From a virus (taxonomy: Duplodnaviria > Caudoviricetes), in the IMG/VR virus record IMGVR_UViG_2883497546_000001, positions 38,246 to 102,245 of that record: DNA of 64,000 bases. The stretch is one strand, 5' to 3'. Positions 19,037 through 56,376 of the stretch are shown piece by piece (positions within the stretch are counted from its first letter, which is position 1; every line of letters starts with the position of its first letter). The position numbers and the translations under genes were made by a program. The notes under the pieces are model-generated. The model did no database searches. It saw only the letters and a program-made list of their open reading frames with translations, and had not been told where the DNA came from.

Positions 19037-19618
19037 ATGTCCCGCCACACCAGGTTCATCGCCCTCGCCATCTTCGCGCTACTGCTCGGCATTCCCCTCG
19101 GTTATCTCGTGCTCGCCTGGCACCCGGCAGCACCGCTCACGTTCCATCTGGAACGCGGCGAGCCCACGGTGCGGAATGTGAAACTTCTAGGCAGCTACCG
19201 CGCACGCTGGGTCAGGGTTGAAAACTCCAGCTTCACGCCCATCGAATTTCGCGGCGCCACCCTCCTGCTCAAGTCTGGACCGATGACTTCTTGGGATGCG
19301 CCACCCGGCCTTATCTTGCTTGTGCATGGCGCCCTGATCACTCCAATTCCGCGCACATTCCCGCCCCCGCTGGTTGTTCCTGCACGCGGACGTATCGTGG
19401 CAGATGCCATGCTGGCTCCGCCGCTGGTGGAGGAGCTTCCGAAGGACAACGTTTGCGTCCTCTATCAATGGCAGTCCCTGCCTCGCTCGAAAGCATCCTC
19501 GATGGCGAAATGGCTGCAGGACCACGGACCAGCCTGGGCCGGGAAGTACATCCCTCGATTCGAACCATGGGAAGAGTACACCCCCCTGGAAGGAGCACTG
19601 CCACCTGAGGGGAATTGA
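19037..19618 (+). CDS. Array paralogue 1 (193 aa)
   Basis: MSRHTRFIAL..WHPAAPLTF..VENSS. Confidence 0.88.
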   Translation: MSRHTRFIALAIFALLLGIPLGYLVLAWHPAAPLTFHLERGEPTVRNVKLLGSYRARWVRVENSSFTPIEFRGATLLLKSGPMTSWDAPPGLILLVHGALITPIPRTFPPPLVVPARGRIVADAMLAPPLVEELPKDNVCVLYQWQSLPRSKASSMAKWLQDHGPAWAGKYIPRFEPWEEYTPLEGALPPEGN

Positions 19619-19757
19619 CGATCCATCCATCCTTCGGACCGCCCAGAGGGCCTTCATCCACCCGCACTCCGAGTCGCCACCCACTCACCCTGACGTTCCA
19701 CCCAAACAAGACTTCAGATTTGAACTCTCAATTTTCAAATTTCAAATCCTCACCCCC

Positions 19758-20294
19758 ATGTCCCGCCGCATAAAGCTCATCATCCTCGCCATCTTCCTCG
19801 TGCTGCTCGCCATTCCAACGGTACACTTCTACCTTCACTGGCGGCCCAGGAACCCTCTTCACTTTCAGTTGGTAAATGTTGAGCCACCAGTCGCCGGAGA
19901 TCCCAGGTACGCGCGCACAGCCCGAATCGTGGTCCACAACACCTGCGGCACCCCGATTCACCTCGAGTTTTCAGAGGTCACCAACTCCGATGCACGCGGG
20001 TACGGATACGGGCAGATCTATCCTGAGCTCCGGGTCGGGCCCCATTTGGAAGATACCATCGTCCCCTCGCACGGCAGCGTTGCAATGACCTCCACATGGT
20101 TCCTGGGGGTACCAGGCAACACTCCTCCTGCTGATGACTTGAAGGTGAAGTACACGTGGAACTCTGACCTCAAGTGGCGGACCAGACGCCTCTACCAGCA
20201 GCTCTTCGATCTAGCCCCCAATTTTTTCGCGGGGAAACTCCCTGCAATCGTGACCGACCTCGACACCACGCCACTGCAAGGAGCAGTAAAATGA
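19758..20294 (+). CDS. Array paralogue 2 (178 aa)
   Basis: MSRRIKLII..WRPRNPLHF. Confidence 0.9.
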   Translation: MSRRIKLIILAIFLVLLAIPTVHFYLHWRPRNPLHFQLVNVEPPVAGDPRYARTARIVVHNTCGTPIHLEFSEVTNSDARGYGYGQIYPELRVGPHLEDTIVPSHGSVAMTSTWFLGVPGNTPPADDLKVKYTWNSDLKWRTRRLYQQLFDLAPNFFAGKLPAIVTDLDTTPLQGAVK

Positions 20295-20874
20295 GCGGCC
20301 GGGTGACGTGATCTCCTGTGCCCGACGTTCCGCCCATCTCACAGCACATCTGAATTCCTTCGTTCGTGCGCACTCAATCAAGGAAGAACACCCCGTGAGA
20401 AAGCGCAGGACCTCGCCTCATGAATGAACGTCAGGTCAATAAATAGCCGATGGTGTCAGCAGGGAAATGACGCATAACATACCAACTCATCACCCCAGGT
20501 CGCTATGCGTCTTGGAGTGCGGTGGCACAGGCCTCCCTTGAGGCCGCGACACCGCTTTCAGAGGGGTAGCACCTTCGGAGTTGGAGCGTCACATCTCTCC
20601 ATGATCCTCAACCCCTCCGCCAAAAGCGGTTTCGCGCTTGAGCGCTTGCCACCGCACTCCAAGACGCAAAGCGCTTCTTCCCCGTGCCCGATGAAAGCGA
20701 GCCGAGGTCAGCGTTCGACACGCCCGCATCACCCCCACTTTGCATTTTTCATTCATCACTTTCCATTTTGCATTCCCTTCTTCACAATCACCACGGCCTG
20801 TCTCCGATAGTCTCCCCATTCACTCTATTTCTCGGCCCTGATTTGAAGGCCTAAATCATAGATCATAAATCGCG

Positions 20875-21423
20875 ATGTCCCGCCGCACGAAGGTCATTCT
20901 CCTACTGGTCTCCCTTGCGCTGGTGAGCCTCACCGCAGTGAACCTCGGTCTCGTCTGGGCTCCGGAGAATCCATTGCGCTTCCGCATCATCGCCCCGCCA
21001 CCAGAGAAACTGGAGAGAGCATTCCACGACGGCACGGCACACGTCAGCGGCTACCAGGTGGAAGTGGAGAATACCACAGGTGCCACCATACGCCTGCTGA
21101 GAGCGGAACTGTTCGGGCCGGAGGAGTCTGATGGCAGTCGGGTCCAATTCAGCAACGTGCAGACCGCGTCAGCTGCCGCGGAACAGGACCTGGTCATCCC
21201 CCCACATGGCTCTCGTCGCCTTGAGCTCTCCATGTTCGAGGCCACGTATGTCGCGGAACTTGCCCGGTCAGAAATGACCTGCACCTTCCTCTCCCGGTCC
21301 AAGGAGAACTACATGAATCTCCTCGACTATGTGGACCGCAAATGGCCATCCCTTTCCCTCTCCATGCGCTTCTACCCACTTCTGGATGGGAATTCCGTGC
21401 CAGTCCAGATGAGCGAGCAGTAG
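20875..21423 (+). CDS. Array paralogue 3 (182 aa), related to 39 and 40
   Basis: MSRRTKVIL..WAPENPLRFRIIAP. Confidence 0.9.
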   Translation: MSRRTKVILLLVSLALVSLTAVNLGLVWAPENPLRFRIIAPPPEKLERAFHDGTAHVSGYQVEVENTTGATIRLLRAELFGPEESDGSRVQFSNVQTASAAAEQDLVIPPHGSRRLELSMFEATYVAELARSEMTCTFLSRSKENYMNLLDYVDRKWPSLSLSMRFYPLLDGNSVPVQMSEQ

Positions 21424-21483
21424 ATCCTCCCTCGGATGGGTCCGTGCGTACTCCTCCAATCTCAGATCATAAATAGCCTCCCC

Positions 21484-22011
21484 ATGTCCCGCCGCACGAA
21501 GCTCATCATCACCACTCTCTTCCTCGTGTTGCTTGCCATTCCCGCGGTGCATTTCTATTTCCATTGGCGACCAGAGAATCCATTGCGCTTCCAGATCGGC
21601 AACGCTGGAGCGGGCTTTCCTCTGAATCCACATGACCTAAGAGTGCCTGTCATCGTCCGCAACTCCAGTGCCACGCCCATCCATCTCCAGTTCGCTATCA
21701 TCGCGACGAAGAAGAAGGAGCAGGTTGGCGCCATCCTGCCTCCAGTGTGGCTCGGGTCCAAGACGTACGACGAAGTCGTCCCTCCCTACGGTACCTTGGA
21801 AATGTATTGCTCGGAGAGGAACTTTATCGCTGACGCGCGCGCTCCCGGGTATCTGCAGGTAGCGTACATCTGGGATTCTAACCTCAGGTACCGGGCGAAG
21901 TCCCTGTATGGAGACCTTGGCTATCGCATCTCTCAGTGGCTGTCCCTCGACCTCCCTTACATCTCTCCTGAAAGCGACACCGCACCGCTGGAAATCGACA
22001 CGGGAAAGTGA
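21484..22011 (+). CDS. Array paralogue 4 (175 aa), related to 2
   Basis: MSRRTKLII..VHFYFHWRPENPLRF. Confidence 0.9.
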   Translation: MSRRTKLIITTLFLVLLAIPAVHFYFHWRPENPLRFQIGNAGAGFPLNPHDLRVPVIVRNSSATPIHLQFAIIATKKKEQVGAILPPVWLGSKTYDEVVPPYGTLEMYCSERNFIADARAPGYLQVAYIWDSNLRYRAKSLYGDLGYRISQWLSLDLPYISPESDTAPLEIDTGK

Positions 22012-22098
22012 ACTTGCTCCATCATCCCCGTCCCCTTCCTCCCCGCACCTTGATTTGAAATCCCCAATCACAAATCAAAAAATCATAAATAGCTCCCC

Positions 22099-22689
22099 AT
22101 GTCCCGCCGCACGAAGCTCATCATCGCCGCGCTCTTCCTCGTGCTGCTCGCCGTTCCCGCAGCCTACGTCGCACTCACCTGGCATCCCGCATTCCCGCTG
22201 CGCTTCCATCTTGAAAGCATCGACTCGGAACCGTTGGAAGAAGACCCTCGCTATCGGGGGCTGCGCGTGCGTGTTGAAAACACCAGCCCGATCCCGGTGC
22301 ATATTTGCGGAGGTATGCTGTATACGAACTTTGGAATACCTGTCTTTGGCGGTCCTGAAGGGCTCCTTCTGCCACTCGAGTTTAGAGACGGCATTCCATC
22401 GAGGAACCCTGATGAGCCGGTGATCGTTCCCGCACACGGAGAACTCCACATTCGCGGTGCCCTGGGCGCCAAACTGACGCAGATCCCGCAGGGAGGGGAA
22501 ATTTCCGTGCAATGCACGTGGGAAACCGCAACACGTGCCGGGGCTGGACGTGCGGTGAATTGGATCAGATACAGCTGTCCGCAATGGGAGACAGGGCGGC
22601 TTCCCATGATAGAGCCCCTGAGAACGACAGTGCCGCTGGAGACCAAAGGTCACGCACCAGCACCACCGCAAGAACCATCCGCACCCTGA
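22099..22689 (+). CDS. Array paralogue 5 (196 aa)
   Basis: MSRRTKLII..WHPAFPLRF..VENTS. Confidence 0.9.
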   Translation: MSRRTKLIIAALFLVLLAVPAAYVALTWHPAFPLRFHLESIDSEPLEEDPRYRGLRVRVENTSPIPVHICGGMLYTNFGIPVFGGPEGLLLPLEFRDGIPSRNPDEPVIVPAHGELHIRGALGAKLTQIPQGGEISVQCTWETATRAGAGRAVNWIRYSCPQWETGRLPMIEPLRTTVPLETKGHAPAPPQEPSAP

Positions 22690-22736
22690 TTTGAAATCCC
22701 CAATCACAAATCAAAAATCATAAATAGCGCTTCCCC

Positions 22737-23291
22737 ATGTCCCACCGCACAAAGCTCATCATCGCCGCGATTTTCCTCGTGCTGATCGCCATCCCGGCGG
22801 CATACGTCATACGCACCTGGCATCCTACCAATCCGCTTCGATTTCGGTTTTCCGAGGTCCACCCTGAGGCGGACCTCAAAAAGGGCATTCGCAAGATCAC
22901 TGTCACCGTGGAAAATGCCAGCGATGCTCCCGTCCAGCTCTACGGTGCGAGTATCGAAGTTCCCAACAGCAAGGGCAGGGCGCCTGAGCGGGCCGGCTTC
23001 TGCGGTCCCTGGAGTCATAGCTCGATTGGTGGCGCGAGTAGACCTGTCAGGTTCGTGGTGGTCCCGGCCCGGGGTACCACCCGCATCACCGCTGAGCTCC
23101 GTACTGAATATATGACGGATGGCAAAAGCGGCCGCCTTCAGGTGACCTATCATTGGATGTCAGTGACGAAGTCCAAAAGTGCCGGACTGTTTAAATGGAT
23201 CCACGGAGGCAGCCCGCAATGGTTGCGCAGCCTCAGCCCTGATTTCAAGATCAAGCCTGATATTGCTCCCCTGGAAGGAGTCGCAGAGTAG
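22737..23291 (+). CDS. Array paralogue 6 (184 aa)
   Basis: MSHRTKLII..WHPTNPLRF. Confidence 0.9.
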   Translation: MSHRTKLIIAAIFLVLIAIPAAYVIRTWHPTNPLRFRFSEVHPEADLKKGIRKITVTVENASDAPVQLYGASIEVPNSKGRAPERAGFCGPWSHSSIGGASRPVRFVVVPARGTTRITAELRTEYMTDGKSGRLQVTYHWMSVTKSKSAGLFKWIHGGSPQWLRSLSPDFKIKPDIAPLEGVAE

Positions 23292-23368
23292 TCGCCGGCC
23301 CGCATCAACTCCCAAGGTCTCCCAGCTCTCCCTTTCAAATCATCAATCAAAAATCATAAATAGTCCTC

Positions 23369-23989
23369 ATGTCCCGCCGCACGAAGCTCCTCATCACCCT
23401 GCTCTTCCTCGTGCTGCTCGCCATCCCCGCGGTGTACGTCGCCCTCACCTGGAGTCCCGTGAACCCCCTGCGCATCCGCATCGCACCCGCCGCAGGGAGG
23501 GCTCCACTGCCCATCGAGCCCTTAGGCTACTACGTGCTGCCCATTGAGGTGGAGAATACAAGCTCCACCACCGTGCATCTGATGCATGTGTCACCTAGCA
23601 TCAGTCCTCCATCCAGTACGTCACGCGGAGATTCTGCGGTGGAATTACCCTTTCTTCTAAACCACATTAGGAGCTTCAGCATCGTCATCCCACCACACAG
23701 CACTGTCCCCGCGCATCTGACTATCTATCGCAAGGACCTCGCCATTGCGGAGCTGAACGGCTCCCTCTGGGCTAAATATGGGTGGGTCTCCATAAGGAAG
23801 GCCACCACCATGAGATTCATGGAGTGGATTGGCTCCTTCCCGCCTGGCTCGTGGTGTGAGCCTGTGCCACATCCCCGACCTGACTATGACTCCGTACCCG
23901 TGGAGTTTCCCAAAGGCACCGCCGCCTCTTTTGGCATCTCTCTGGAACCCACGTCTGGCTTTGAAGGCAGGGGCCCTCTCTCCAGATAA
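23369..23989 (+). CDS. Array paralogue 7 (206 aa)
   Basis: MSRRTKLLI..WSPVNPLRI. Confidence 0.9.
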   Translation: MSRRTKLLITLLFLVLLAIPAVYVALTWSPVNPLRIRIAPAAGRAPLPIEPLGYYVLPIEVENTSSTTVHLMHVSPSISPPSSTSRGDSAVELPFLLNHIRSFSIVIPPHSTVPAHLTIYRKDLAIAELNGSLWAKYGWVSIRKATTMRFMEWIGSFPPGSWCEPVPHPRPDYDSVPVEFPKGTAASFGISLEPTSGFEGRGPLSR

Positions 23990-24124
23990 AGATAAGGTCT
24001 GGCACCGGCACTCATCCCATTTTGCATTTTTCATGCATCACTTTTCACTTTGCATTTCTACGGCCCGCACCAGCGCATTGATTTGAAATCTCCAATCTCA
24101 AATCATCAATCATAAATAGCCCCG

Positions 24125-24730
24125 ATGTCCCGCCGCACGAAGCTCATCATCCTCGCGCTCTTCCTCGTGTTGCTCGCCATCCCCGCGGCATACGTCGCCC
24201 TCACCTGGCATCCACAGAATCCCCTCCACTTCCACCTGGAGCGCATCCATCAGGCCTCGGAGCTGGACCACAAGGGCGGCCGCAGGCTCCGCATCAGAGT
24301 TGAAAATTCCAGTCACGCGGAAATCCACCTCTTCAAGGTCCTCATGGAAGAGCAGGGGAACAGTCCGGACTGGGTGGACCATTCTGGGTTTATCAACGCA
24401 GAATCTCAGCGCGAGCAGGGGATTCAAGTGCAGGAGCATGCCATCATCATCCCTCCCCGGAGCACCATCCACCTCACCGGATATCTTCGTCCTGAGCTGC
24501 TGTCCTCCGCACAGCAGGGCCGCATCGCTGCCCACTACTACTGGAATTCCCAAATCATCCGAAAGTCGGAGCGGGGAATGCGTTGGTTCAATCAACACAG
24601 TCCACGGATGCTGCGGAATCTCATCTTCCTGCCTGAGTACCTCGTGGATGAGGCTCCACTGGAATCCGCCCCAGGTGTGGAGATTCCCCCAACTCCACCA
24701 CCACCCGCCACCACTCCCACCCGTGAGTGA
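24125..24730 (+). CDS. Array paralogue 8 (201 aa)
   Basis: MSRRTKLII..WHPQNPLHF. Confidence 0.9.
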   Translation: MSRRTKLIILALFLVLLAIPAAYVALTWHPQNPLHFHLERIHQASELDHKGGRRLRIRVENSSHAEIHLFKVLMEEQGNSPDWVDHSGFINAESQREQGIQVQEHAIIIPPRSTIHLTGYLRPELLSSAQQGRIAAHYYWNSQIIRKSERGMRWFNQHSPRMLRNLIFLPEYLVDEAPLESAPGVEIPPTPPPPATTPTRE

Positions 24731-24785
24731 TTTGAAATCTCCAATCATAAATCATAAATCATAAATCATAAATAGCGTCCCTCCA

Positions 24786-25337
24786 ATGTCCCGCCGCACG
24801 AAGCTCATCATCCTCGCAGTCTTCCTCGTGCTGCTCGCCATCCCCGCGGCATACGTCGCGCTCACCTGGAGTCCGAAGGATCCCTTGCGCGTCCGTTTGA
24901 TCAGTATGGATATGCCGGGGGAGCAGGATCCATTCAAACAAATGACCATGCGCATGGAGTTGGAAAATACCAGTACGGTCCCCATTTTCGTTGGCGATGT
25001 GGTATTCCGCGCCCGGCGGAAAACCGGCGTCAATGGCGATCCTATGTTCCAGAGAATCTACCTTTTCTCACCGGACGGTTCGTCGAACTGGTTCCACACC
25101 ATCGCACCGCGCAGCACGCAACTTTTCTCTGCAGATGTCACCGGGTACGACCAGGCGACGGTGGACATGGACAGCGCCGAGATGGTGTACCTTTACGAAA
25201 GTGATACGGAACATCGCATCAATGAACTCTGGAGTCGCGGCATCGAGCGCGTCCCTTATTGGATCACAAAACACTTGCCCGAGCCATTGAGCGACAGTGA
25301 CCAGGCTGCGGCATCCATCGAGCCCCCACCTCACTAG
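24786..25337 (+). CDS. Array paralogue 9 (183 aa)
   Basis: MSRRTKLII..WSPKDPLRV. Confidence 0.9.
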   Translation: MSRRTKLIILAVFLVLLAIPAAYVALTWSPKDPLRVRLISMDMPGEQDPFKQMTMRMELENTSTVPIFVGDVVFRARRKTGVNGDPMFQRIYLFSPDGSSNWFHTIAPRSTQLFSADVTGYDQATVDMDSAEMVYLYESDTEHRINELWSRGIERVPYWITKHLPEPLSDSDQAAASIEPPPH

Positions 25338-25396
25338 AAGAGGCGAAGCGTTCCTGGCAATAGCTGTAGATAGTATCGTGCCAATCTTCTCCCCCC

Positions 25397-25504
25397 ATGT
25401 CCCGCCGCGCAAAGCTCATCCTCCTCGCGCTCTTCCTCGTGCTGCTCGCCATCCCGGTGACATATATCGCCCTCACCTGGCATCCGAACCTAGCGGTCGA
25501 GTAG
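25397..25504 (+). pseudogene. Leader-only array stub (35 aa)
   Basis: Translates MSRRAKLILLALFLVLLAIPVTYIALTWHPNLAVE-stop; homology ends at WHP. Confidence 0.85.
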
Positions 25505-25570
25505 CATCAGAGGGATGAACACTTTGCATTTTTCATTCATCACTTTTCACTTTGCATTCCCCTTCGCGAA

Positions 25571-25972
25571 ATGAGCTCTACCGTCCTCTCCCAAGCCCTC
25601 GCCCTCTACGACAGGGCAGGGGAGACCCAGACCGGGACCCCAACACAATCCCGCACCTTCGAGGAGGACCTCGCCGCCTTCATCCACACCGGCCGCGTCT
25701 ACATCACGCCCACCTGCGTCCTCTTCGCCAAAGCCGTCCCATCTCACCGCGAGTACCACGAGCCCTGGGACACCTGGGAGCCGCATGAGTGCGATGCCTG
25801 GCTCGTCTGGCTCGCCGCCGGAGACCTCGCCGAGTTTTTCCAATACGTGCCCTACGAGCTCCCGTGGCTCGTCTGGGCCCGCCGCGACCGCCTGCGTAAG
25901 TGGCCCTACGACCTCGCCCGCCGCCACATCCTGCAGGAGCACGCAACCGCCGCACTCGAAACTCCCTCCTAA
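25571..25972 (+). CDS. Phage-type hypothetical protein embedded in the array
   Basis: 133 aa, FEEDLAAF, DAWLVWLAAGDL and LPWLVWAR motifs; strongly C-ending codons like terL; not an array paralogue. Confidence 0.75.
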   Translation: MSSTVLSQALALYDRAGETQTGTPTQSRTFEEDLAAFIHTGRVYITPTCVLFAKAVPSHREYHEPWDTWEPHECDAWLVWLAAGDLAEFFQYVPYELPWLVWARRDRLRKWPYDLARRHILQEHATAALETPS

Positions 25973-26047: not shown

Positions 26048-26545
26048 ATGTCCCGCCGCACCAAGCTCATCCTCCTGGGCATCTTTCTCGTCCTGCTCGC
26101 CATCCCGGTCTGGCATGTGGCCAGCAACTGGAATTCTCCGAACCCGCTGCGATTCCGTCTGGTGAGCCGGGAGAAAGATGGCAAGTATAGCGAGCGGGTG
26201 GTGATTGAGGCGCGCAATACCAGCACCTCGGCGAGGTGCATCCAGTCCGTCGTGTTGCAGCGCGTCCAGGAGCCTTACCCGCCGTTTCTGGGGGTCATCG
26301 AGCTCGGCCCGGTGATACCTGCCGGCGGCACCTTGCGCGGCAGCACCTCGGTGCCCTTGTCAAACAGGGCATCCACCGAACCTGAGGCCTTGGAAGTCAC
26401 CTATTTCCAGGCATCCATCGCGCGTCGCAAGATGCTTCAGTGGTATGGATCGATTTTGACGCGTCTCCCCAAATTCCAACATAAGCCTCTCTTGAGGCCG
26501 TCCATCTACGTGGAGTCAGAAGTGACCCTGGAGTCATCTCGCTGA
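26048..26545 (+). CDS. Array paralogue 10 (165 aa), WHV.SNW subfamily
   Basis: MSRRTKLIL..WHVASNWNSPNPLRF. Confidence 0.9.
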   Translation: MSRRTKLILLGIFLVLLAIPVWHVASNWNSPNPLRFRLVSREKDGKYSERVVIEARNTSTSARCIQSVVLQRVQEPYPPFLGVIELGPVIPAGGTLRGSTSVPLSNRASTEPEALEVTYFQASIARRKMLQWYGSILTRLPKFQHKPLLRPSIYVESEVTLESSR

Positions 26546-27331: not shown

Positions 27332-27916
27332 ATGTCCCGCCTCACGAAGGTCACGCTCCTCCTGGTCAGCCTCCCCCTGGTTTCCCTTGCGGCGGTGGTG
27401 CTCCTCCTCACCTGGTCGCCGGCGGATCCTCTACGCTTCCGCCTTCTCCACGTACCCGTGCATGTGAATGCTTCCACGGTCAGTGACACCTACACATCCA
27501 TCCCTCCCTTTGAGATGGAACTGCGAAACACCAGTTCCTTTCCCATCGCGCTCCAAGACATCAACTTCGAAGACCGGGGGCGCGCCGCATATCAGGGTGC
27601 GTTCATCTACGCGAGGCCCCCAGATATGGAAGAGAAAGTCTTGAGCTACGCCCAAGTCACCATTGCAGGTCACGAGACCCTTCGCATCTCGTATGATCCT
27701 GGTCCCTTCGCCGTGCCGGCGATGGTCGCGGATAAGCCAGACATCCGCTACCGCTGGAAACTCAGCATCCTCGACAAGCTGGAGAGCGGCTTGAAGGATG
27801 GCCTGAGGAAATACGGTCCCGAAGCATGGTCCGGACTTCTCCCTGGTATCGAGTTAACCACCACCCTGGCGCCACTCGACGTCTCCGCCTTCAAGCCCAC
27901 CCCGGCTACTCCTTGA
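27332..27916 (+). CDS. Array paralogue 11 (194 aa)
   Basis: MSRLTKVTL..WSPADPLRF. Confidence 0.9.
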   Translation: MSRLTKVTLLLVSLPLVSLAAVVLLLTWSPADPLRFRLLHVPVHVNASTVSDTYTSIPPFEMELRNTSSFPIALQDINFEDRGRAAYQGAFIYARPPDMEEKVLSYAQVTIAGHETLRISYDPGPFAVPAMVADKPDIRYRWKLSILDKLESGLKDGLRKYGPEAWSGLLPGIELTTTLAPLDVSAFKPTPATP

Positions 27917-28013: not shown

Positions 28014-28571
28014 ATGTCCCGCCGCACGAAGCTCGTCCTCCTCGGCATCTTCCTCGTGCTGCTGGCCATCCCAGCCGTTTATTTCGTGCTCAACTGGCAA
28101 CCGGAGAAACCGTTGCGTTTTCGTCTGGTGAGCGGCGCGGACGCAGGGACCGGTCTTCCGGAGGGCAACCGTCTCGTCTTCGAAATTGAAAACACCAGCG
28201 CCGTACCTGTCTACCTCGAGGGGATACGGCTGGTGCAGGGCGGGGACGAAGCAAATCGGCACAGTCGACTGGGCAGCTTCTCGTCGCGGATGAGTTCCAG
28301 CAACCCGACCAAGATTCCCGCGCATGGCGCCGTGCCACTGAAGGGGGAGGTAGTATATATTCAAGAATCCAGGAAGGTTCCCATGGAACGCTTCTGGATT
28401 GAATATCGGTGGACTTCTCAACCCAAGTTCCTGGTTGCAACCCCGCTTAAGCGGCTCCGCCTTCATCTTCCCACATCCATCGCGTCACAGATGCCGGCCG
28501 TCAGTGCAAGCGTCGATGTCACCCCACTCGAAGTCTCCGGCCTCACGTCACAAGCGCCCTCATCTCCCTGA
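28014..28571 (+). CDS. Array paralogue 12 (185 aa)
   Basis: MSRRTKLVL..WQPEKPLRF. Confidence 0.9.
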   Translation: MSRRTKLVLLGIFLVLLAIPAVYFVLNWQPEKPLRFRLVSGADAGTGLPEGNRLVFEIENTSAVPVYLEGIRLVQGGDEANRHSRLGSFSSRMSSSNPTKIPAHGAVPLKGEVVYIQESRKVPMERFWIEYRWTSQPKFLVATPLKRLRLHLPTSIASQMPAVSASVDVTPLEVSGLTSQAPSSP

Positions 28572-47799: not shown

Positions 47800-48396
47800 A
47801 TGCCCCGCCGCACCCCGCTCCTCATCCTTATCACCCTGCTCGTGCTGCTCGCCACCCCTGCGATTTATGTGGCCTGCACCTGGAGCACGGAGAATCCCCT
47901 GCGCTTCGAAGCGGTGCGCCTGGAGATGGAACCCTCACGCGGAGTGAAGGAGGTCGGCATTCTCCACCTGACCGTGAGGAATGTCAGCAAGCTGCCCGTT
48001 TATCTCACCTTCGCGGGATTGAAGCAAAAAAATGCCAGCGGTGCCAGTGCTGCCTTCCAGGTGGTAGGCGGCATCGTCCCGCGGTTGCAGGACCGCCCTG
48101 GGGACCCCTCCAGTGCTCTTTACCTGCCGCCGGGCGGGTCCATGCAGTGCCGCGCCTACATCGTGGTCCAGGACGTGCATTCACCGAAGGCCTTGCAGGA
48201 TATTGATGTGAACTATCACTGGCGCTCCGGCACCGGCGAGAAGGCGCACACCTTCTGGGCACAACACATCTACCAGACCACGGACTGGCTTGAGAAACTG
48301 ATTCCCGCACCAGATCTGCAGCGCCACCGCAGCCCACTCACGCTCCCCGCCACCGCTTCCCCCCAGCCATCCCCAGGGCAGGGGAGTGGCAAGTGA
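47800..48396 (+). CDS. Array paralogue 31 (198 aa)
   Basis: MPRRTPLLI..WSTENPLRFEAVRLE. Confidence 0.9.
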   Translation: MPRRTPLLILITLLVLLATPAIYVACTWSTENPLRFEAVRLEMEPSRGVKEVGILHLTVRNVSKLPVYLTFAGLKQKNASGASAAFQVVGGIVPRLQDRPGDPSSALYLPPGGSMQCRAYIVVQDVHSPKALQDIDVNYHWRSGTGEKAHTFWAQHIYQTTDWLEKLIPAPDLQRHRSPLTLPATASPQPSPGQGSGK

Positions 48397-48497: not shown

Positions 48498-49136
48498 ATG
48501 TCCCGCCGCGCCAAGCTCCTCATCACCGCGCTCTTTATCGTGCTGCTCACGGTACCGGTGGTGTACGGTTGTCTCTTCTGGTCCATCGAGCAGCCCTTGC
48601 GCTTCCGTTGCATCACCGTGCTTCCGGAGGATACAGGCAAGCTGCTTATCTCGCTGCCTCATGAGCCGGTCGTCCCCTTCATCTTCGAGGTACAAAACAC
48701 CAGGCCCTACCCCGTGTACTTCCAGGACATGAGTATCTTGGCATACTATCCGGAGTCGCCACTGCCGGATGGATACCTTTCCATGGACTATGTCACACGC
48801 AGCGTGCGGGATAAATCTTTGTGGGCCGCTCCGAGCCTGTACGGGCAATACATTCCCGCCCACGGCGTGACCCGCTTCGAAGTGCTCATGCGTCCGAAAA
48901 CCGTCAGCGAATTTGAAACGGGCAAAATCAAACTCGTCTCGTTTTGGGCAAGTGTTCCCAGAAGGCTGGCATACGACGCGCGAAACTGGGTGCACCCACG
49001 CCTGCGCAAAACGCTCAGGTTTGCGAGGCTCCCCTATGTGTCATCATCCCAGCAAGGCCCCGCCACCCTCGAAGGCCTGCCGGTCGTTATTCCTCGTCCC
49101 GTCATGAGCTCCCCGCCATCCCCACCACCTCCCTGA
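48498..49136 (+). CDS. Array paralogue 32 (212 aa)
   Basis: FWSIEQPLRFRC. Confidence 0.9.
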   Translation: MSRRAKLLITALFIVLLTVPVVYGCLFWSIEQPLRFRCITVLPEDTGKLLISLPHEPVVPFIFEVQNTRPYPVYFQDMSILAYYPESPLPDGYLSMDYVTRSVRDKSLWAAPSLYGQYIPAHGVTRFEVLMRPKTVSEFETGKIKLVSFWASVPRRLAYDARNWVHPRLRKTLRFARLPYVSSSQQGPATLEGLPVVIPRPVMSSPPSPPPP

Positions 49137-49203: not shown

Positions 49204-49824
49204 ATGTCCCGCCGCACGAAGCTTCTCATCACCGCGCTCTTCCTCGTGCTGCTCGGCATTCCCGTGGGGTATGCCATCCTCTTCTGGTCCGTGGATCAGC
49301 CCCTGCGCTTCCGTTGCGTCACCGCGCTTCCGCAGGAGATGGCACAGGGACATCCCATGATGCCTCCTGAGACCGTCATTCCTCTCATCTTCGAAGTGGA
49401 AAACACCAAGCCGTATCCCGTCTACCTCTCGAACGTGATCATCCGGGAGTACACGCCGGGTTCGTCATCGCCTGATGGATATTTTCCCTTGAATTATCAC
49501 TCGCGCAAAGCGCCGGCCAGATCTTCGTCAGCCGTACCAAGCTTGTCCGCGCAATCCATTCCGGCCCATGGCGTGACCCGCTTCGAAGTGCTCATGAATC
49601 CGGCAGCCGCCCGCACACTCGGGCCGGACAAGGTAAGACTCATCCCTCATTGTGCCAGTCCTCCCAGGAAATGGGCGATCGATGCGCAAAACTGGTTGCG
49701 CGCCCGCCTTCCTGAAAAACTCGGCTTCGCGAAGCTCCCCCCAATCCCGTTCCAGAATAGCCCCGCCGCCCTCGAAGGCCCACCGGTCATTATTCCCCGC
49801 CCCGTTATGAGTTCCGCGCCCTGA
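49204..49824 (+). CDS. Array paralogue 33 (206 aa), close to 32
   Basis: FWSVDQPLRFRC. Confidence 0.9.
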   Translation: MSRRTKLLITALFLVLLGIPVGYAILFWSVDQPLRFRCVTALPQEMAQGHPMMPPETVIPLIFEVENTKPYPVYLSNVIIREYTPGSSSPDGYFPLNYHSRKAPARSSSAVPSLSAQSIPAHGVTRFEVLMNPAAARTLGPDKVRLIPHCASPPRKWAIDAQNWLRARLPEKLGFAKLPPIPFQNSPAALEGPPVIIPRPVMSSAP

Positions 49825-49889: not shown

Positions 49890-50438
49890 ATGTCCCCCCG
49901 CACGAAGATAACCATCCTCTCCGTCTTCCTCCTCCTGCTCGGCCTTCCCGCGATCTATGTCGCGCTCACCTGGCAAGTGGCAGCCCCCTTTACCTTCCGG
50001 TACCTGGAGCGTGGCGAACCGCAGAAGTCGCTATTCACCCCCTCTGGCAGCTCTCCCTCGACTCCTTTGGTGCCCATATTCCTCGAGGCGCAGAACACCA
50101 GCAGTCGCCCCGTCCACCTCGGCGGGGTAGAGCTGCGGGCGCGCAGCGGGGGTCCCCGACAGCTCGTCTACACCATGTGGGGAGGACCTCCCATCCCGCC
50201 CCAGGGCACCGCCCGCGTGCAGGTCCTCGTGGATCCGGCAACGGCCCAGCGCGTGACACGCGAGGACTTCGAGGTCTCCTACAGGGCATTCAGCAAGACC
50301 AAAGAGAAGACAAAAGACATCTTCTATAAGCTGAAAAGCATGGCCCCGTCACTCCTGCACCGGGACGCGGATCCATTCACCAGCGCGAAGGATGAATTCG
50401 TGACCCCGCTCATCATCGACCCGGCCCACCAGGAATAG
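49890..50438 (+). CDS. Array paralogue 34 (182 aa), VADP-related
   Basis: WQVAAPFTFRY. Confidence 0.9.
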   Translation: MSPRTKITILSVFLLLLGLPAIYVALTWQVAAPFTFRYLERGEPQKSLFTPSGSSPSTPLVPIFLEAQNTSSRPVHLGGVELRARSGGPRQLVYTMWGGPPIPPQGTARVQVLVDPATAQRVTREDFEVSYRAFSKTKEKTKDIFYKLKSMAPSLLHRDADPFTSAKDEFVTPLIIDPAHQE

Positions 50439-50494: not shown

Positions 50495-51085
50495 ATGCCC
50501 CGCCGCTCCAGAGGCATTCTCGCAGCCAGCATCATCACCGTCATCCTGCTTGGCCTGGCGCTCGCGTTTTATGTCGTCCTCGGGCTGCCGGTGAATCCCC
50601 TGCGGTTCCGCCCCATCGCCTACCTGGAGCACGACATGCTTCCCGTGGGCTTGCCCAAGAGTGGCGCGGAGTACGTTCACATGGCCGTGGAGAACACGTC
50701 CAACTCCACCGTGTATCTCGCGACGGCGGCTGTGCTCAGCGCGGGCCCATCGAAGAAATACACCCTCGCCTATCTCTCGCATGAGGAGCAGGGGCTGCTT
50801 GGTGCATCCTCCCCCCTCCGTGGCTATGTCATCGTCATTCCACCACGCAGCACCGTCCCTTGTATTGCCTCTGCCCCATCCGGGCGCCTAGTGGAACTCA
50901 GCCTCGGAATCGCGCCCGTGCAGTATGAGTGGACCACCGACGAAAGGTACCAGCTCCTGGAGGCCTGCGAGCGCATGTACCCCTACCTTCCCACGAGGCT
51001 CCGGTCTCACCTCCCTGCGCCCGGCATGCGCCACGATACCATCCCCCTCGAGCTCCCGCCAAACACCCCCGGCCCCAGTGAATAA
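50495..51085 (+). CDS. Array paralogue 35 (196 aa)
   Basis: MPRRSRGIL..LPVNPLRF..VENTS. Confidence 0.88.
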   Translation: MPRRSRGILAASIITVILLGLALAFYVVLGLPVNPLRFRPIAYLEHDMLPVGLPKSGAEYVHMAVENTSNSTVYLATAAVLSAGPSKKYTLAYLSHEEQGLLGASSPLRGYVIVIPPRSTVPCIASAPSGRLVELSLGIAPVQYEWTTDERYQLLEACERMYPYLPTRLRSHLPAPGMRHDTIPLELPPNTPGPSE

Positions 51086-51353: not shown

Positions 51354-51950
51354 ATGTCCCGCCGCACGAAGCTCCTCATCACCACGCTCTTCCTCGTGCT
51401 GCTGGCCATGCCCATGGCATACGTCGTCCTCGCCTGGCATCCGCAGAATCCACTGCGTTTCCGCCAATTGGATGAGAAGGCCACCTATTACGCGTTCCCG
51501 TCGCCGGGTGGCTTGGTGGAAAAGGAATACCACAGCAGAATGATGATGGAAGTGCGGAACACCAGTGCTGCCACCGTACTGTTCATCTCAGGACATTTCA
51601 TCGGAGACTCGTCAGAAGGAAAGGAGGCATTCCGTGCCCAATGGTTTGCGCCTCCGGGACACATTGAAGCGCACCCCATCCCCCCAGGCGGCGCCATCCA
51701 GGTGGAGTTTCATTCCGCAACCGTGCTGGCCACGGCGGACCTCAATCTCCTGCAAGCGGGGAAACTCCGCCTCCGGGACGGGGTTATGCGGTACCAGTGG
51801 GGCTCCCACGTCCAGGCATCGACCTCGGGTGCATGTATCTGGCTTCGTGAAAGGTTGCCTGAATCCCTCGCAGACCACCTGCCCCACATGCTTCCGTTCG
51901 AAGACACCATCGACATGGATCTCCCGCCACCCACAAATCAAAAATCATAA
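51354..51950 (+). CDS. Array paralogue 36 (198 aa)
   Basis: WHPQNPLRFRQL..WGSHVQASTS. Confidence 0.9.
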   Translation: MSRRTKLLITTLFLVLLAMPMAYVVLAWHPQNPLRFRQLDEKATYYAFPSPGGLVEKEYHSRMMMEVRNTSAATVLFISGHFIGDSSEGKEAFRAQWFAPPGHIEAHPIPPGGAIQVEFHSATVLATADLNLLQAGKLRLRDGVMRYQWGSHVQASTSGACIWLRERLPESLADHLPHMLPFEDTIDMDLPPPTNQKS

Positions 51951-51973: not shown

Positions 51974-52507
51974 ATGTCCCGCCGCACGAAGCTCCTCATC
52001 ACCGCGCTCTTCCTCGTGCTGCTCGGCATCCTCGCGGTGTATCTGTTTCAATCATGGAAGCCGGAGAACCCCCTCCGCTTTCAGGTGGTGTCTGTCACTT
52101 CACCCACTCCAGCTACCGGCAGGCAATATCATCCTTATCTGCTGGAGTTCACCGTGACGAATACCTCCAGGGTGCCCATGACTCTGCATTTCGCGCGTCC
52201 GGCATTTCCACATCCCACGGGGAAACCGGATTATCTTCTCGACCATACAAGCGATTTCAAGATTCCAGCAGGCCGTACCGTCCGGTTCAAGCAACCCGTC
52301 ACCGGGCATTTTCAGCAAGGCGTCCTCGCACGTGAGCCCATCCCCGTGGAGTACTACTGCTCGTCAGCCTCCCAGCGATACGTGGCGGATGCCCTGGTCC
52401 GCCTGTACTTTGAATGTCCTGAAAAGTACCGGAAACTGATTCCCCGGACAGAGATGACCAGGTGGGAGACACCCCTCCAGCCCGCATCTCCACCGGTCAA
52501 TCCTTGA
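51974..52507 (+). CDS. Array paralogue 37 (177 aa)
   Basis: WKPENPLRF..EFTVTNT. Confidence 0.9.
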   Translation: MSRRTKLLITALFLVLLGILAVYLFQSWKPENPLRFQVVSVTSPTPATGRQYHPYLLEFTVTNTSRVPMTLHFARPAFPHPTGKPDYLLDHTSDFKIPAGRTVRFKQPVTGHFQQGVLAREPIPVEYYCSSASQRYVADALVRLYFECPEKYRKLIPRTEMTRWETPLQPASPPVNP

Positions 52508-52550: not shown

Positions 52551-53063
52551 GTGTCCCGCCGCCCGAGTATAACCATCCTCTCCGTCTTCCTCGTGCTGCT
52601 CGGCATTCCCATGGTGTATCTGTTTCTATCGTGGGATCCGGGGAATCCCATCCGCTTTCGGGTCGTGGCTGTCACTCCCGCGACTCCTGCTCCCGGCCTC
52701 CCTGAGTATCCCTTCCTCGTGGAATTCACGGTGACAAATACCACCTTGGTGCCCTTGACCCTGCGTAGTGCCCGTCTGGAGCCACGCTTCCGTACCTTGC
52801 GTCCCGGCTACCTCGTGGAGCCTCCCTGCAGTGTCAAAATTCCGGCGGGCGGCACAGTCCATCTCAAGGTGCCCGCTACAGAAATTCTACGCGGTACCCT
52901 CGAAGACCCCGCCCCACTCATGGTAAGATATGATTGCACATCGAAGGTCAGGGACCTCGCGACCGATGCGCATGGTTGGTCGAAGAGTCGTTTTCCCATC
53001 ATACGCTTTGTGCTCATAGCGCAAATGTGTGCTCCCGAGTGGCTGACGCAACTTCAGCCCTGA
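52551..53063 (+). CDS. Array paralogue 38 (170 aa, GTG start), related to 37
   Basis: WDPGNPIRF..EFTVTNT. Confidence 0.88.
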   Translation: MSRRPSITILSVFLVLLGIPMVYLFLSWDPGNPIRFRVVAVTPATPAPGLPEYPFLVEFTVTNTTLVPLTLRSARLEPRFRTLRPGYLVEPPCSVKIPAGGTVHLKVPATEILRGTLEDPAPLMVRYDCTSKVRDLATDAHGWSKSRFPIIRFVLIAQMCAPEWLTQLQP

Positions 53064-53130: not shown

Positions 53131-53679
53131 GTGTCCCGCCGCCGCATCAAGCTCATCTTCCTCCTCGTCCTCGTGGCCACCGCGAGCCTCGTGGCGGTGC
53201 AGCTCGTGCTCACCTGGTCGCCGGAGGACCCGCTGCGCTTTCGCATCACCGCCCCACGCACCGCAGCTGCGGAGGCCCTGCCGGGCATTGAGTACGCGGT
53301 CACCGTGGAGAATACCACCTCCACCACCATCCACCTCATCCAGGCGGACGTGTTCGTTCCGGCGAAGGATGTGAAACCCGATGAGGCCGCTAACACCTAC
53401 GTCAGCTCCGTGCACATTCCCTACTCAGCCTCCGCCGGCACACCCCTCACCGTCATCCCACCGCACAGCACCTGCGAAGTCGTGCTGCCACTCCCTAAAG
53501 AATTCTCCCTCGAGAACCTGAAGGATGCCCACATCAGCTATTTCTCCACCTCGCGCAGCAAGGCCGCCATTTACAACGCCGTCGTCCACCTTAGAAAGAC
53601 CCTGCCCTCCCTGAAGCTCGACCCCTTGTTCCCGTATCTCGCCCCCGACACGCATCGTACCCCTCTGGAGTTCCAGTAA
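53131..53679 (+). CDS. Array paralogue 39 (182 aa, GTG start)
   Basis: WSPEDPLRFRITAPR. Confidence 0.88.
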   Translation: MSRRRIKLIFLLVLVATASLVAVQLVLTWSPEDPLRFRITAPRTAAAEALPGIEYAVTVENTTSTTIHLIQADVFVPAKDVKPDEAANTYVSSVHIPYSASAGTPLTVIPPHSTCEVVLPLPKEFSLENLKDAHISYFSTSRSKAAIYNAVVHLRKTLPSLKLDPLFPYLAPDTHRTPLEFQ

Positions 53680-53793: not shown

Positions 53794-54342
53794 ATGTTCC
53801 GCCGCCCGAAGGTCATCCTCTTCTGCATCCTCATGGCCATCGTGTGCCTCGTGATGGTGCATCTCTACCTCAACTGGAGACCGGCAAATCCATTGCGCTT
53901 CCGCATCACTGCCCCACGGTCGGTTCCCTCGGGAGGCGAAGGCGCGCGCATGGTGGACTACCCCGTCACCGTGGAAAATACCAGCTCCGCCACCATCCGC
54001 CTCATCATGGCGATCCCATTCCCCCCAAAAGAAAAGGACGGTGATGAGGATGAGTACGACAATCCTTCCATCGGCGAGGTGCGTCCCCCGCATCGCTCCG
54101 CCGAGCCCCTGGCCATCATCCCACCGCACGGCACCTGCGAACTCATCGTGTCACTCGTCCGCGACCGCTCTCCGGAGGATCTGAAGGGTGCCACCATGAG
54201 GTATTTCACCGTCACTCCCAGCAGGGCTGCCTTCATTCGCGCAGTGGTCCGCTTCCAAAGAGACTTCGCATACCTGAAGATCAACACCTTATTTCCGGAC
54301 GAGTCTTTCGACATGCATGAGGCCCACATACAGTTCCCATAA
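53794..54342 (+). CDS. Array paralogue 40 (182 aa)
   Basis: MFRRPKVIL..WRPANPLRFRITAPR. Confidence 0.88.
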   Translation: MFRRPKVILFCILMAIVCLVMVHLYLNWRPANPLRFRITAPRSVPSGGEGARMVDYPVTVENTSSATIRLIMAIPFPPKEKDGDEDEYDNPSIGEVRPPHRSAEPLAIIPPHGTCELIVSLVRDRSPEDLKGATMRYFTVTPSRAAFIRAVVRFQRDFAYLKINTLFPDESFDMHEAHIQFP

Positions 54343-54443
54343 AGACACTTCATTTACGCGCAGCATCCTCATCCCTCTGCTAGTCTCTCCGAAACCAAAT
54401 CCAAAATCATCAATCGAAAATCGTAAATCATAGATAGCCCCCC

Positions 54444-55097
54444 ATGTCCCGCCGTGCCAAGCTCATCTTCGTCGCCATCTTCCTGGCGTTGCTGAGCGTC
54501 CCTGCCATCTACCTCGGCCTCACCTGGCATCCGCAGAGCCCGCTGCGCTTCATCCCCACGCCCGGTGAGCACGCGCCTGTGCCCGTGGACAACGAAGTCA
54601 TGGTGCCCCTCACCATCGAGAATACCAGCCGCGCCCCCATCCACCTCCTCGTCGCCAGCTTCTACGACACCAGCCACACCGGCAAAAGCGACGACAGCCT
54701 GGGCGTCATCACCCCCGAGCTGCAGATCAACTCCGGCATCAGCACCAGTCCCGAGTACATCCTCATTCCCGCCAGCGGCCAGTTCTCCGGCATCGCCATG
54801 CTCGACCACGAAGGCTACACCCGCCTCCGCGACGGCAGCGCTCAGGTCGAGTACCTCTGGGCCTCCCGCATCAAGTACCAGGCCATCGAAGCCCTCGACC
54901 ACCTCCGCACCAGCCTCTCTCCCACGTGGTATCACCTCGTCCCCGAGCCCACCATCGGCCAGGACCGCACCACCCTGCAGCTGCCCCCCGCGCCACCCCT
55001 GGACCCCTCGCAGGCGCCATCCTTCCCATCATCCACGGAACCCTCGTTATCAAAAGCACCCCGCACACCTCCCCAGGTGCAGCTCCCACCGCCGTAG
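54444..55097 (+). CDS. Array paralogue 41 (217 aa)
   Basis: WHPQSPLRF..IENTS; strongly C-ending codons throughout. Confidence 0.9.
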   Translation: MSRRAKLIFVAIFLALLSVPAIYLGLTWHPQSPLRFIPTPGEHAPVPVDNEVMVPLTIENTSRAPIHLLVASFYDTSHTGKSDDSLGVITPELQINSGISTSPEYILIPASGQFSGIAMLDHEGYTRLRDGSAQVEYLWASRIKYQAIEALDHLRTSLSPTWYHLVPEPTIGQDRTTLQLPPAPPLDPSQAPSFPSSTEPSLSKAPRTPPQVQLPPP

Positions 55098-55824
55098 GGT
55101 GGTGGGCGGAGGTGGTGATTGATGATATCACACCCTATCGCACCGTGTGAAATCATGGGGAAGGCGCGTTCCTGGGCTGCGTGCAGGCCCGCGAAGCGCA
55201 TGCACATCAGGTTGCTACCAAAGGAAGTTGAAACCGGGTCCTTGTCTGCAAAACATCGGACTCCCTGGAGTGGTTCACGCCATCGAGGTATCCATGGATA
55301 CACGAGCATGGCACAGGCCCAAGGAGCGGGAACGCCTCGTTCCCGTCAGCGGCCACCATGCTGGGTGATGTGGCATGTCGAGCACGCGTACTATTCCAAG
55401 AGAGTACTTCGATAGATACACTCCAATAGACCTTTTCACCCACGGGAACGAGGCGTTCCCGCTCCTTGGGCCTTCTGCAACACCCTGGGCAGGTTCGTCG
55501 CGTGAGAGACCTGTTTTCAACTCGCCCTGGTGTAACATGAATCTGAATCAAAATCAGAAGCGTCTCGTGATCTGACCCACCCTCGCTGCTAGACACGACT
55601 CAGCGACTCACCACCTTGCGCGAAGCGCCTTGGAGTGCGTGTGCGAAGCACCGCTTTGGTCGGGAGCTTCGTCGCGCGGAGCCTCCTTCAGGCAGACTCA
55701 CGCTGGGTGGTTCCGCATCACAAGAACGCACCGACCGTTTTTTTGCGGGCCCTCTCACAGAGCTCGAACTCGGACTGGACCATGGTGAAATCTCACCTAC
55801 CAAGTCCCAAGCCAAAAATCTCCC

Positions 55825-56376
55825 ATGTCCCGCCGCGCGAAACTCTTCATCGCCTCCATCTTCATCATGCTGCTCGCCGTGCTCGGCTGGCAGTTCGTGA
55901 GTGCCTGGCGGCCGGAGAATCCGCTGCGCTTCCGCCATGTGGGTGGGAACATGGAGAGGGGGCCATTCGAAGAGGGATACTATCAGTCCATGCAGATGGA
56001 ACTGCGGAACACCAGCGGTGTGGACGTGATGTTGATATCGGGAACGTTTCGTGAGGAACTTGAATCGAAGGGGGAAGGGCTACTTTCCAGTGCTCATGTG
56101 GGGCGCAGGGGAATAGAGGCATTCACCGTCCCGGCCAGGGGCACCCTGATGGTGGACTTCTATTGTTCAACCACCGTGTCGGTAGACGCTTTCAAGAGCA
56201 TGCAGTCCGAAAAATGGCAGGCACGCAAAGGAAGCGTGCACTACGAGTGGGTATCCCGCTCCAAGGCGCGCGCCGTGCAGGCACACGACTGGCTTCACCG
56301 CACACTTCCAGCAGGCTTGGCGAAACTCCTGCCTGAGCTATCTCCATTCTCAGACACCACCACCGTAGAGCCATAA
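55825..56376 (+). CDS. Array paralogue 42 (183 aa)
   Basis: WRPENPLRF..LRNTS. Confidence 0.9.
   Translation: MSRRAKLFIASIFIMLLAVLGWQFVSAWRPENPLRFRHVGGNMERGPFEEGYYQSMQMELRNTSGVDVMLISGTFREELESKGEGLLSSAHVGRRGIEAFTVPARGTLMVDFYCSTTVSVDAFKSMQSEKWQARKGSVHYEWVSRSKARAVQAHDWLHRTLPAGLAKLLPELSPFSDTTTVEP

Follow-up and report, generated by a model that had tools for sequence, protein, structure and literature searches.

A conserved locus with a changing gene set: a 42-gene array of predicted Ig-like membrane proteins in a phage-derived element of Roseimicrobium

Why would a phage-derived element hold dozens of divergent versions of one small membrane protein, side by side, next to its terminase genes? 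The question is raised by a gene array in a 64,000-nucleotide stretch of DNA (hereafter the window; positions 38,246 to 102,245 of IMG/VR record IMGVR_UViG_2883497546_000001, Caudoviricetes), whose host genome, G000, is that of the soil bacterium Roseimicrobium sp. ORNL1 (PMC7330248), available as one contig. A first-pass annotation had described 42 intact, co-oriented paralogues between the terminase large-subunit gene (terL) and a DnaC-like gene, with no full-length copy frameshifted. Both the count and the coordinates were borne out when a hidden Markov model (HMM), iterated from the motif-bearing open reading frames (ORFs), was run over the six frames of the window: 43 matches were obtained, all on the + strand, comprising 42 uninterrupted full-length genes (named here A01 to A42) and, as the only partial unit, a leader-only stub of 35 aa. 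The array (19037-56376) starts 415 nt past the end of terL (17030-18622, +; phrog_2) and totals 37.3 kb, with a coding share of 65% and a median spacer of 101 nt. Matches to the array-built HMM have E-values of 1e-31 to 1e-58 per gene and, by calculation, only about 20% of the array genes would be expected to stay stop-free at 0.1 neutral substitutions per site; a chance origin of the intact array is therefore excluded.

What these genes encode was examined alongside the corresponding array in a sister species, G001, whose genes carry B-numbers. Over the two species the proteins are 165-229 aa long. The features by which the family had been recognised, namely a basic N-terminus, one transmembrane helix, a leader motif and a set of scaffold motifs, emerged again as conserved columns (W28, P33, R35, F36, the invariant N60, P110 and P168), and the N-terminal net charge is +2 to +4 in 93 of the 94 members from the two species. 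No lipobox was present in the 94 members examined. From the basic N-terminus and the lack of a lipobox we infer an uncleaved inner-membrane anchor, with the ectodomain predicted to lie in the periplasm. Overall, the array proteins are predicted to be single-pass, with a basic cytoplasmic tail of 5-6 residues, one transmembrane helix and an immunoglobulin (Ig)-like ectodomain. Conserved positions are limited to the leader and the hydrophobic core, all loops and exposed strand positions being variable; in fact, median pairwise identity is 50% at the amino acid and 65% at the nucleotide level in the leader, and 19% and 37%, respectively, in the ectodomain.

The fold was addressed with an AlphaFold2 model of A06 (22737-23291), built from the 42-member alignment with a mean predicted local distance difference test score (pLDDT) of 92.5 and a predicted template-modelling score of 0.84. 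The predicted structure consists of a helix at residues 3-28, a 7-strand beta-sandwich, an amphipathic helix at 143-164 and a last strand; a second member, modelled from its single sequence, was uninformative (pLDDT 47). The best structural match was a PapD-like chaperone (Z 7.9, root-mean-square deviation (rmsd) 2.8 Å over 94 residues), with none at Z 8 or more, and Foldseek and VIA structure searches returned only generic Ig-like domains; a family missing from those lists is not thereby excluded. The LEA_2-like protein AT1g01470 (1xo8; Z 5.9, rmsd 4.8, 115 aligned residues) was tied with many Ig-like folds, LEA_2/TMEM106B clusters reached template-modelling (TM) scores of 0.45-0.51 to the model, and Pfam's LEA_2 (PF03168) matched just 1 of the 42 members, below the cut-off (E=0.18). 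Of the Ig-like/LEA_2-like beta-sandwich proposed earlier, the Ig-like sandwich behind a transmembrane helix is thus retained (AlphaFold2, Foldseek), while LEA_2 is not recovered by sequence. Pfam, PHROGs, NCBIfam and PADLOC assigned no family membership to the 42 members, and the family still does not map to a described one with known function.

Other identities were considered and rejected. The array profile matched the CBM2 domain weakly (E=2e-4) on the strength of two generic Ig motifs. In CBM2 domains surface tryptophans contact the glycan, and the corresponding positions are not conserved in the profile. Class III prepilins carry a Gly/Ala-Phe cleavage motif and Glu5 ahead of the helix, neither of which appears in the leader columns, and matches to the archaeal pilin fold were weak (Z 6.3, rmsd 5.6-7.0). 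Finally, the invariant Asn, followed by Thr-Ser, is read as structural and not as a glycosylation sequon, because the third position varies and the motif is also common to cytoplasmic Ig folds.

We then focused on how so many versions could arise at one locus. Synonymous codon choice was compared in pairs whose ectodomains are less than 25% identical, by setting the codons used for the same amino acid against the codon-usage expectation. Synonymous identity was 75% over codons 1-10 (85% within this genome) and 54% over codons 11-27, for an expectation of about 34-40%, and 0.40 in the ectodomain, where 0.36-0.39 was expected. Translation-initiation constraints could contribute to this identity, but position-specific codon choice reaches codon 27, which argues for homogenisation of the leader at the DNA level. 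Moreover, 116 of the 861 array pairs share 20 bp or more exactly, and A36 (51354-51950) and A37 (51974-52507), whose ectodomains are not closely related to each other, share 62 bp exactly across the start codon (-32 to +30). Chimeras were found among cross-species orthologues as well: A03 (20875-21423) and B08 are 53% identical at the nucleotide level in the leader versus 80% in the ectodomain (72% in amino acids; p=2e-6), and A11 (27332-27916) and B03 48 versus 68% (ectodomain 53% in amino acids; p=6e-4). A leader less similar than its ectodomain is the reverse of the usual pattern, and both cases are read as leader swaps. The 35-aa stub (25397-25504, +) ends in homology at this same junction of transmembrane leader and ectodomain. 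In addition, an AT-rich heptamer-repeat element precedes most array genes (e.g., 22055-22098, +), 20 of its 33 clusters in the genome being located in the array, and a few of its copies score as sigma70-like promoters. Promoter-like elements were matched 11 times, compared with 4.9 +/- 2.3 in shuffled sequences, several array genes having an element of their own.

Taken from these sequence patterns, the array very probably evolves by recombination-driven birth and death, with the leader as crossover and gene-conversion site. A conserved DNA block of about 150 bp, made up of the upstream heptamer repeats and the first ~27 codons, would serve as that site; unequal recombination would then duplicate, delete, reorder and re-leader ectodomain cassettes, and new duplicates would diverge under relaxed or partly positive selection while retaining the fold, with no dedicated recombinase being needed. 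The first-pass annotation had seen no fit to a diversity-generating retroelement, an integron or a shufflon, and each failed its defining test. The only reverse transcriptase of the genome lies 2.46 Mb away, the ectodomain is variable throughout, and the segment in common lies at the 5' rather than the 3' end. The best match to the integron integrase TIGR02249 in the genome scored 77.6 bits against a cut-off of 265, and the pattern RYYYAAC..GTTRRRY, a simple one used without a covariance model, gave 0 attC-like matches on both strands of the array. As for an invertase, no PF00589 was found within 300 kb and no PF00239 or PF07508 in the genome, and all units are co-oriented whole genes.

To evaluate whether the copies are under selection, ratios of nonsynonymous to synonymous substitution (dN/dS) were estimated. 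Orthologous ectodomains across strains gave values of 0.16-0.63. For pooled cross-species pairs the ratio was 0.20 (0.13-0.31) at scaffold positions and 0.48 at variable ones, and for pooled recent duplicates 0.38 and 0.79 (95% 0.67-0.93), respectively, one pair reaching 1.24. In the two species' arrays, 94 of the 96 units are intact. These constrained ectodomains indicate that the array genes are functional and diverge faster after duplication. Neutral evolution is largely refuted, and the diversifying selection proposed earlier finds no clear support in its strict sense, the ratio at variable sites of recent duplicates never clearly exceeding 1.

The comparison between strains shows that the locus is conserved and its gene set is not. 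In G001 the same element, with the same junction, has an array of 52 genes of full size, plus one fragment, in the interval from terL to DnaC, and only 5 of the 42 G000 ectodomains have a partner there at 49% or more. On a quick ectodomain tree, made without bootstrap, the genes of the two species intermix, with small species-specific clusters, and gene order is shuffled around an embedded 133-aa phage gene, yet broadly collinear (rho 0.76 over 13 hand-picked pairs). Metagenome contig L037 carries another array right behind the terminase genes terS-terL, contigs L024 and L065 carry arrays around the 133-aa gene, and the three differ in gene sets and orders. The expectation that array content would vary among strains is thereby confirmed, and so is the clustering of the family: 42 array genes stand against eight weaker copies dispersed among housekeeping genes elsewhere in the G000 chromosome. 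Those dispersed copies that were checked are syntenic orthologues in G001 at 74-77%, and turnover is confined to the copies inside the phage element. One dispersed member (L046; G000 2227365-2229266) adjoins a tyrosine integrase gene, and in G001 an island of four unrelated genes splits the last array gene from the rest (L018:1048-6588).

Beyond these strains, clustering at 50% gives 249 representatives of the family in a set of 1.84 billion proteins, and every named source is Roseimicrobium, the named relatives of the array proteins coming from a metagenome-assembled genome of that genus. Among the best 150 library matches, 97 match neither array at >98%, most of them only at ~30-50%. A search of 58 other genomes from the order did not recover the family, and a scan of 400 genomes of the phylum, of low sensitivity since 8 candidates were scored per genome, gave only one marginal match (E=7e-4); feature-level look-alikes occur in Verrucomicrobiota and Acidobacteriota. 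Scans of viral, metagenome and genome contig collections with leader DNA and terL returned no matches. Soil-metagenome contigs matched at 80% likeness connect array units that are not neighbours; these joints may reflect several strains or repeats and are not counted as evidence.

The array is carried by a podovirus-type element that extends from ~40 kb left of the window to the window's right end, measuring ~104 kb in G000 and ~98 kb in G001. Profile matches identify its portal, terL, terS, DnaC-like and primosomal genes and two tail fibres, while scaffold, capsid, tail-tube, ejection and lysis roles were assigned by gene order and appearance; beyond the left edge of the window, capsid-position, tail, ejection-position, fibre and lysis genes continue as far as about -40 kb. 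In G022, a relative belonging to another genus, terS, terL, the 133-aa gene and portal follow one another in the same orientation, and there is no array. In Roseimicrobium, by comparison, the terS-terL-133-aa block (window 15879-25972) runs opposite to portal and capsid; both species share this inversion, which L037 probably has as well, and it is within and behind the inverted block that the array grew. Between G000 and G001, identity is 83-95% for capsid, portal, terL and tail tubes. For capsid, portal, terL, scaffold and tube A, the synonymous divergence (dS) between the two species is 0.29-0.44, host genes showing 0.31-0.79, with dN/dS of 0.08-0.15. The left host junction is also the same. 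The orthologous position, the host-like dS and the low dN/dS thus indicate vertical inheritance of the element under purifying selection. No tyrosine integrase (PF00589) was found within 300 kb of the element in G000 nor on its contig in G001, where the tail fibre was likewise not found with the query used. Given the size of ~100 kb, an integrase not found nearby and purifying selection on the phage genes, the element looks like a domesticated, immobile, oversized and vertically inherited phage derivative. The earlier label of prophage is apt as to the phage genes around the array, and not as to an active temperate prophage, for which integrase (none near the element in either species) and size (~104 and ~98 kb) argue otherwise.

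Several neighbouring features of the element deserve description. Two segments outside the window on its left (L001:1304-7066 and L042:11131-18796) hold the gene of the gp16-position protein and a set of cassettes. The protein, of 1920 aa, has the polyvalent effector domains LPD3, Kinase-PolyVal and MuF_C; its gene appears in two frames in G001. Downstream of it lie the cassettes, with LPD37, Tox-MPTase4 and a kinase domain, and the G001 cassettes differ. Moron-inflated podovirus modules with polyvalent gp16-position genes were also seen in another genus (G022 C35:173000-226000, L027-L030; G030 C25, L032-L033), and together such elements may form a wider class of domesticated effector-delivery elements. 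In G001, a transposase-like ORF, a methyltransferase-like gene and a large membrane protein replace the two tail-fibre genes of G000 (C15:142500-147300; L022:2500-7300). Between scaffold and capsid (L001:16777-20000 to window 2614) there are antisense insertions, namely a weak SIR2-like gene and a 1109-aa gene, the latter with a 25% homologue ~47 kb outside the element in G001. At the right end (63269-64000), small divergent genes, 88% identical at the nucleotide level to G001 over 397 bp, may be the control switch of the element.

What, then, could the array do? It looks like a fast-evolving defence library, and we favour, with a probability of about 0.4, a library of inner-membrane proteins that would block DNA and protein ejection by related podovirus particles, in the manner of the superinfection exclusion (Sie) protein SieA of P22. 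The predicted topology of the array proteins is that of SieA, a prophage protein of superinfection exclusion whose escape mutants map to ejection proteins (PMC10883804). Each periplasmic ectodomain, held at the inner membrane, would recognise one variant of the trans-envelope ejection proteins; recognition would block DNA and protein delivery by related podovirus-type particles, and the array would represent an exclusion repertoire accumulated against the particles of sister strains or against free relatives of the phage. Plausible targets exist in the same element, as the gp15-position protein is only 28-33% identical, in partial alignments, among three strains with capsids 94-98% identical, and the gp16-position protein bears effector domains. 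The placement of the arrays behind terL or around the 133-aa phage gene, and turnover limited to copies in the phage element, also speak for this reading. It is tempting to go further and see in a domesticated phage that delivers effectors a weapon paired with an antibody-like shield for kin warfare, in which each cell would have 40-50 Ig-fold inner-membrane receptors, each specific for one variant of the ejection machinery; this extension is doubtful. If true, it would mean a genus-wide pool of hundreds of specificities obtained without reverse transcriptase, integrase or Cas.

A number of points weigh against exclusion of ejection. Ejection-protein variability is common in podoviruses, so that the gp15-position correlation is not specific. 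Types of P22 SieA that are <30% identical have the same target range (PMC10883804), and for this reason Sie proteins need not be variant-specific. No exclusion or defence family in PADLOC, PHROGs, NCBIfam or Pfam resembles the array proteins in sequence, and the dN/dS never clearly above 1 counts here too. Furthermore, co-orientation with terS-terL could imply late lytic rather than lysogenic expression, and the stable dispersed copies, with the look-alikes in Verrucomicrobiota and Acidobacteriota, suggest that the family began with a role in the host envelope.

That last point leads to the possibility that the array is an accessory family of the host envelope, with LEA_2/TMEM106-like or CBM-like Ig domains that would bind glycans, lipids or complexes of the membrane. 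Such a family would have expanded in a locus prone to recombination and rich in morons, and its diversity would widen the range of substrates or partners, unrelated to phage exclusion. The eight dispersed copies among housekeeping genes, those checked being stable between species, are in agreement with it, as are the structural neighbours LEA_2, TMEM106B (TM 0.45-0.51) and AT1g01470 (Z 5.9), the native GC content at third codon positions (0.74 vs 0.75), and the fact that the element collects many unrelated morons. The CBM2 match (E=2e-4) would point the same way, but it reduces to two generic Ig motifs without conserved glycan tryptophans. It explains neither the near-complete turnover only inside the phage element nor the hundreds of variants in one genus, and we regard this possibility as unlikely. 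Slightly less likely still is an orphan immunity library against polymorphic toxins of competitors acting in the periplasm or membrane, delivered by a type VI secretion system (T6SS), contact-dependent inhibition or similar, as in the esaG/tsaI/tipC and Vibrio cholerae arrays. The architecture is the same, in that paralogues differing in sequence stand in tandem, have a homology block at the 5' end and recombine (PMC9484751), the topology suits periplasmic action, and the element has polymorphic-effector cassettes (Tox-MPTase4, LPD37). However, no cognate toxin gene stands ahead of the array, which starts 415 nt after terL; TssC/VipB was not found in G000 or G001, other secretion systems not having been searched; and the effector domains of the element are heterogeneous enzyme types with small adjacent genes, not one family for one immunity fold.

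Two further explanations carry little weight. Late-expressed phage cargo, made with the terminase on induction and acting in particle maturation, in the timing of lysis or as a decoy within the cell that makes it, would account for the co-orientation with terS, terL and the embedded 133-aa gene in the same inverted block; yet related elements in another genus of the family do without an array, 40-50 divergent versions are not accounted for by packaging or lysis, and the array has promoter-like elements of its own (11, as given above), which makes this very unlikely. Near-neutral expansion, a slippage of the locus at its repeats and leaders that would yield copies of little function, could draw on spacers rich in genome-wide repeats and on a variable-site dN/dS near 0.8-1 in recent duplicates. 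It is largely refuted by purifying selection, with orthologues at 0.16-0.63 and the scaffold at 0.20, while drift would stop ~80% of the genes at 0.1 substitutions per site and 94 of 96 units are intact; we consider it highly improbable. Exclusion of podovirus ejection is kept as the favoured reading.

The individual units, all on the + strand and identified by the HMM, are located as follows. Behind terS (15879-16625, +; phrog_51), which, judged by the canonical order in G022, has been inverted with respect to the remaining late operon, and terL, which has an array directly downstream in three strains (G000, G001 and that of contig L037), the first genes are A01 (19037-19618; ectodomain 49% identical to B07 by pairwise identity), A02 (19758-20294), A03, A04 (21484-22011; 75% to a third-strain copy on L037), A05 (22099-22689), A06, A07 (23369-23989), A08 (24125-24730) and A09 (24786-25337). 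After the stub comes the conserved 133-aa phage gene (25571-25972, +), without family match, whose usual place is between terL and portal and which is within the array in four strains. A10 (26048-26545) forms a subfamily with A13, A14, A16, A23 and A24, and is followed by A11 and A12 (28014-28571). An unrelated antisense gene of 398 aa, also without family match, is inserted at 28865-30061 (-). Then come A13 (30433-30942), its recent duplicate A14 (31019-31528; ectodomain 69%), A15 (31605-32180), A16 (32233-32757), A17 (32874-33437; 49% to the distant A36) and A18 (33494-34048; 61% to B17), and, past two short membrane-protein genes (34520-34813 and 34968-35270, +), A19 (35377-35964), A20 (36115-36678), A21 (37051-37593) and A22 (37845-38420; 62% to B21), the start of which is uncertain and possibly an ATG at 37740. 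A23 (38995-39546) and its recent duplicate A24 (39819-40367), with leaders 99% identical in nucleotides, are the pair with the variable-site ratio of 1.24.

A third short membrane-protein gene (40464-40802, +) separates these from A25 (42434-43123), A26 (43196-43792), A27 (43960-44556; in a subfamily with A28, A30 and A34), A28 (44772-45359), A29 (45450-46049), A30 (46101-46739), A31 (47800-48396), A32 (48498-49136), A33 (49204-49824), A34 (49890-50438) and A35 (50495-51085). The pair A36 and A37 is followed by A38 (52551-53063) and A39 (53131-53679), the two genes with GTG starts, A40 (53794-54342), A41 (54444-55097) and A42 (55825-56376), which is convergent with the DnaC-like gene over a 7-nt tandem repeat (56379-56467). 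The DnaC-like loader and a primosomal/replication protein occupy 56463-58260 (-), and at the other end of the window are the scaffold-position gene (2619-3512), a role given by gene order, and portal (5623-7323), both on the - strand. Besides the genes named, the array is interrupted by repeats resembling repetitive extragenic palindromes (REP), which are also found genome-wide; many other short tandem repeats and REP-like elements swell the spacers, and a 15-bp tandem repeat (x24) lies just downstream of portal (5276-5635). The short interrupting genes belong to a second family, of ~90-aa membrane proteins, with about 20-25 copies in the genome, 8 of them in the window (9265-13993, 34520-35270, 40464-40802), further copies 180 kb downstream, 4 copies in the G001 array, and look-alikes in Verrucomicrobiota and Planctomycetota. 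An obligate partnership of the two families was rejected because no homology is detectable (hhalign probability 4%) and the short family clusters elsewhere too.

Altogether, these results describe a protein family and a genus-wide array that are undescribed in the literature searched, where nothing relevant on Roseimicrobium prophages or such arrays was found. A locus that stays in place while its gene set changes is the mark of a conflict interface, here in a soil phylum that has been little studied, and in size the array exceeds several-fold the tandem immunity arrays known from the literature found. If its members block phage ejection, they would provide dozens of small, natural, well-folding binders against a DNA-entry step that is structurally poorly understood, and envelope-level exclusion could be held as a repertoire instead of one gene. 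The source strain is in culture and its genome is complete, which puts the hypothesis within reach of direct tests.

Among known systems, prophage-encoded small envelope proteins such as P22 SieA, HK97 gp15 and TP-J34 Ltp (PMC10883804) come close in function to what we propose: the array proteins are likewise predicted to be inner-membrane proteins, by one transmembrane helix, a positive-inside tail and no lipobox, and an ejection-position protein, the class on which SieA acts, is polymorphic here too. They differ in being single genes of broad specificity, with no similarity detected to the array proteins, and large arrays of them are unreported in the literature found. The tandem expansion of an Ig-like domain in a phage recalls the BACON repeats of crAssphage, a named carbohydrate-associated family (PMC6949934), but no BACON match was obtained and the units here are separate membrane-anchored genes with a constant leader. 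LEA_2/TMEM106B, PapD-like and CBM2 Ig folds share the beta-sandwich topology, the first also after an N-terminal transmembrane helix; the similarity is at fold level only (TM about 0.5 or less), the extra amphipathic helix sets the array proteins apart, and Pfam gives no membership. Polyvalent/MuF effector systems (PMC5512222) are shared by the gp16-position gene of the element, with its LPD3, Kinase-PolyVal and MuF_C domains, and not by the array. The orphan-immunity arrays of the V. cholerae T6SS, which arise when effector-immunity modules beside T6SS genes are displaced (PMC5361080), similarly accumulate immunity genes that record past conflicts, whereas here there is one fold, TssC/VipB was not found, and growth proceeds by duplication and leader recombination. 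Closest in architecture are the esaG/tsaI arrays of Staphylococcus and tipC arrays of Streptococcus, in which homology blocks drive intergenic recombination, loss and expansion, strain RN6390 having twelve esaG (PMC9484751). Strings of non-identical paralogues, homology-block recombination and strain-variable content were all found here as well; those arrays, however, of about a dozen copies, lie beside a cognate type VII secretion system toxin with proven immunity, while the present ones hold 42-52 Ig-fold membrane proteins of an unrelated fold in a phage terminase operon with no adjacent toxin. The Roseimicrobium array thus works like the known recombining immunity arrays without being one of them, as it differs in its size, its fold and its location in a domesticated phage.

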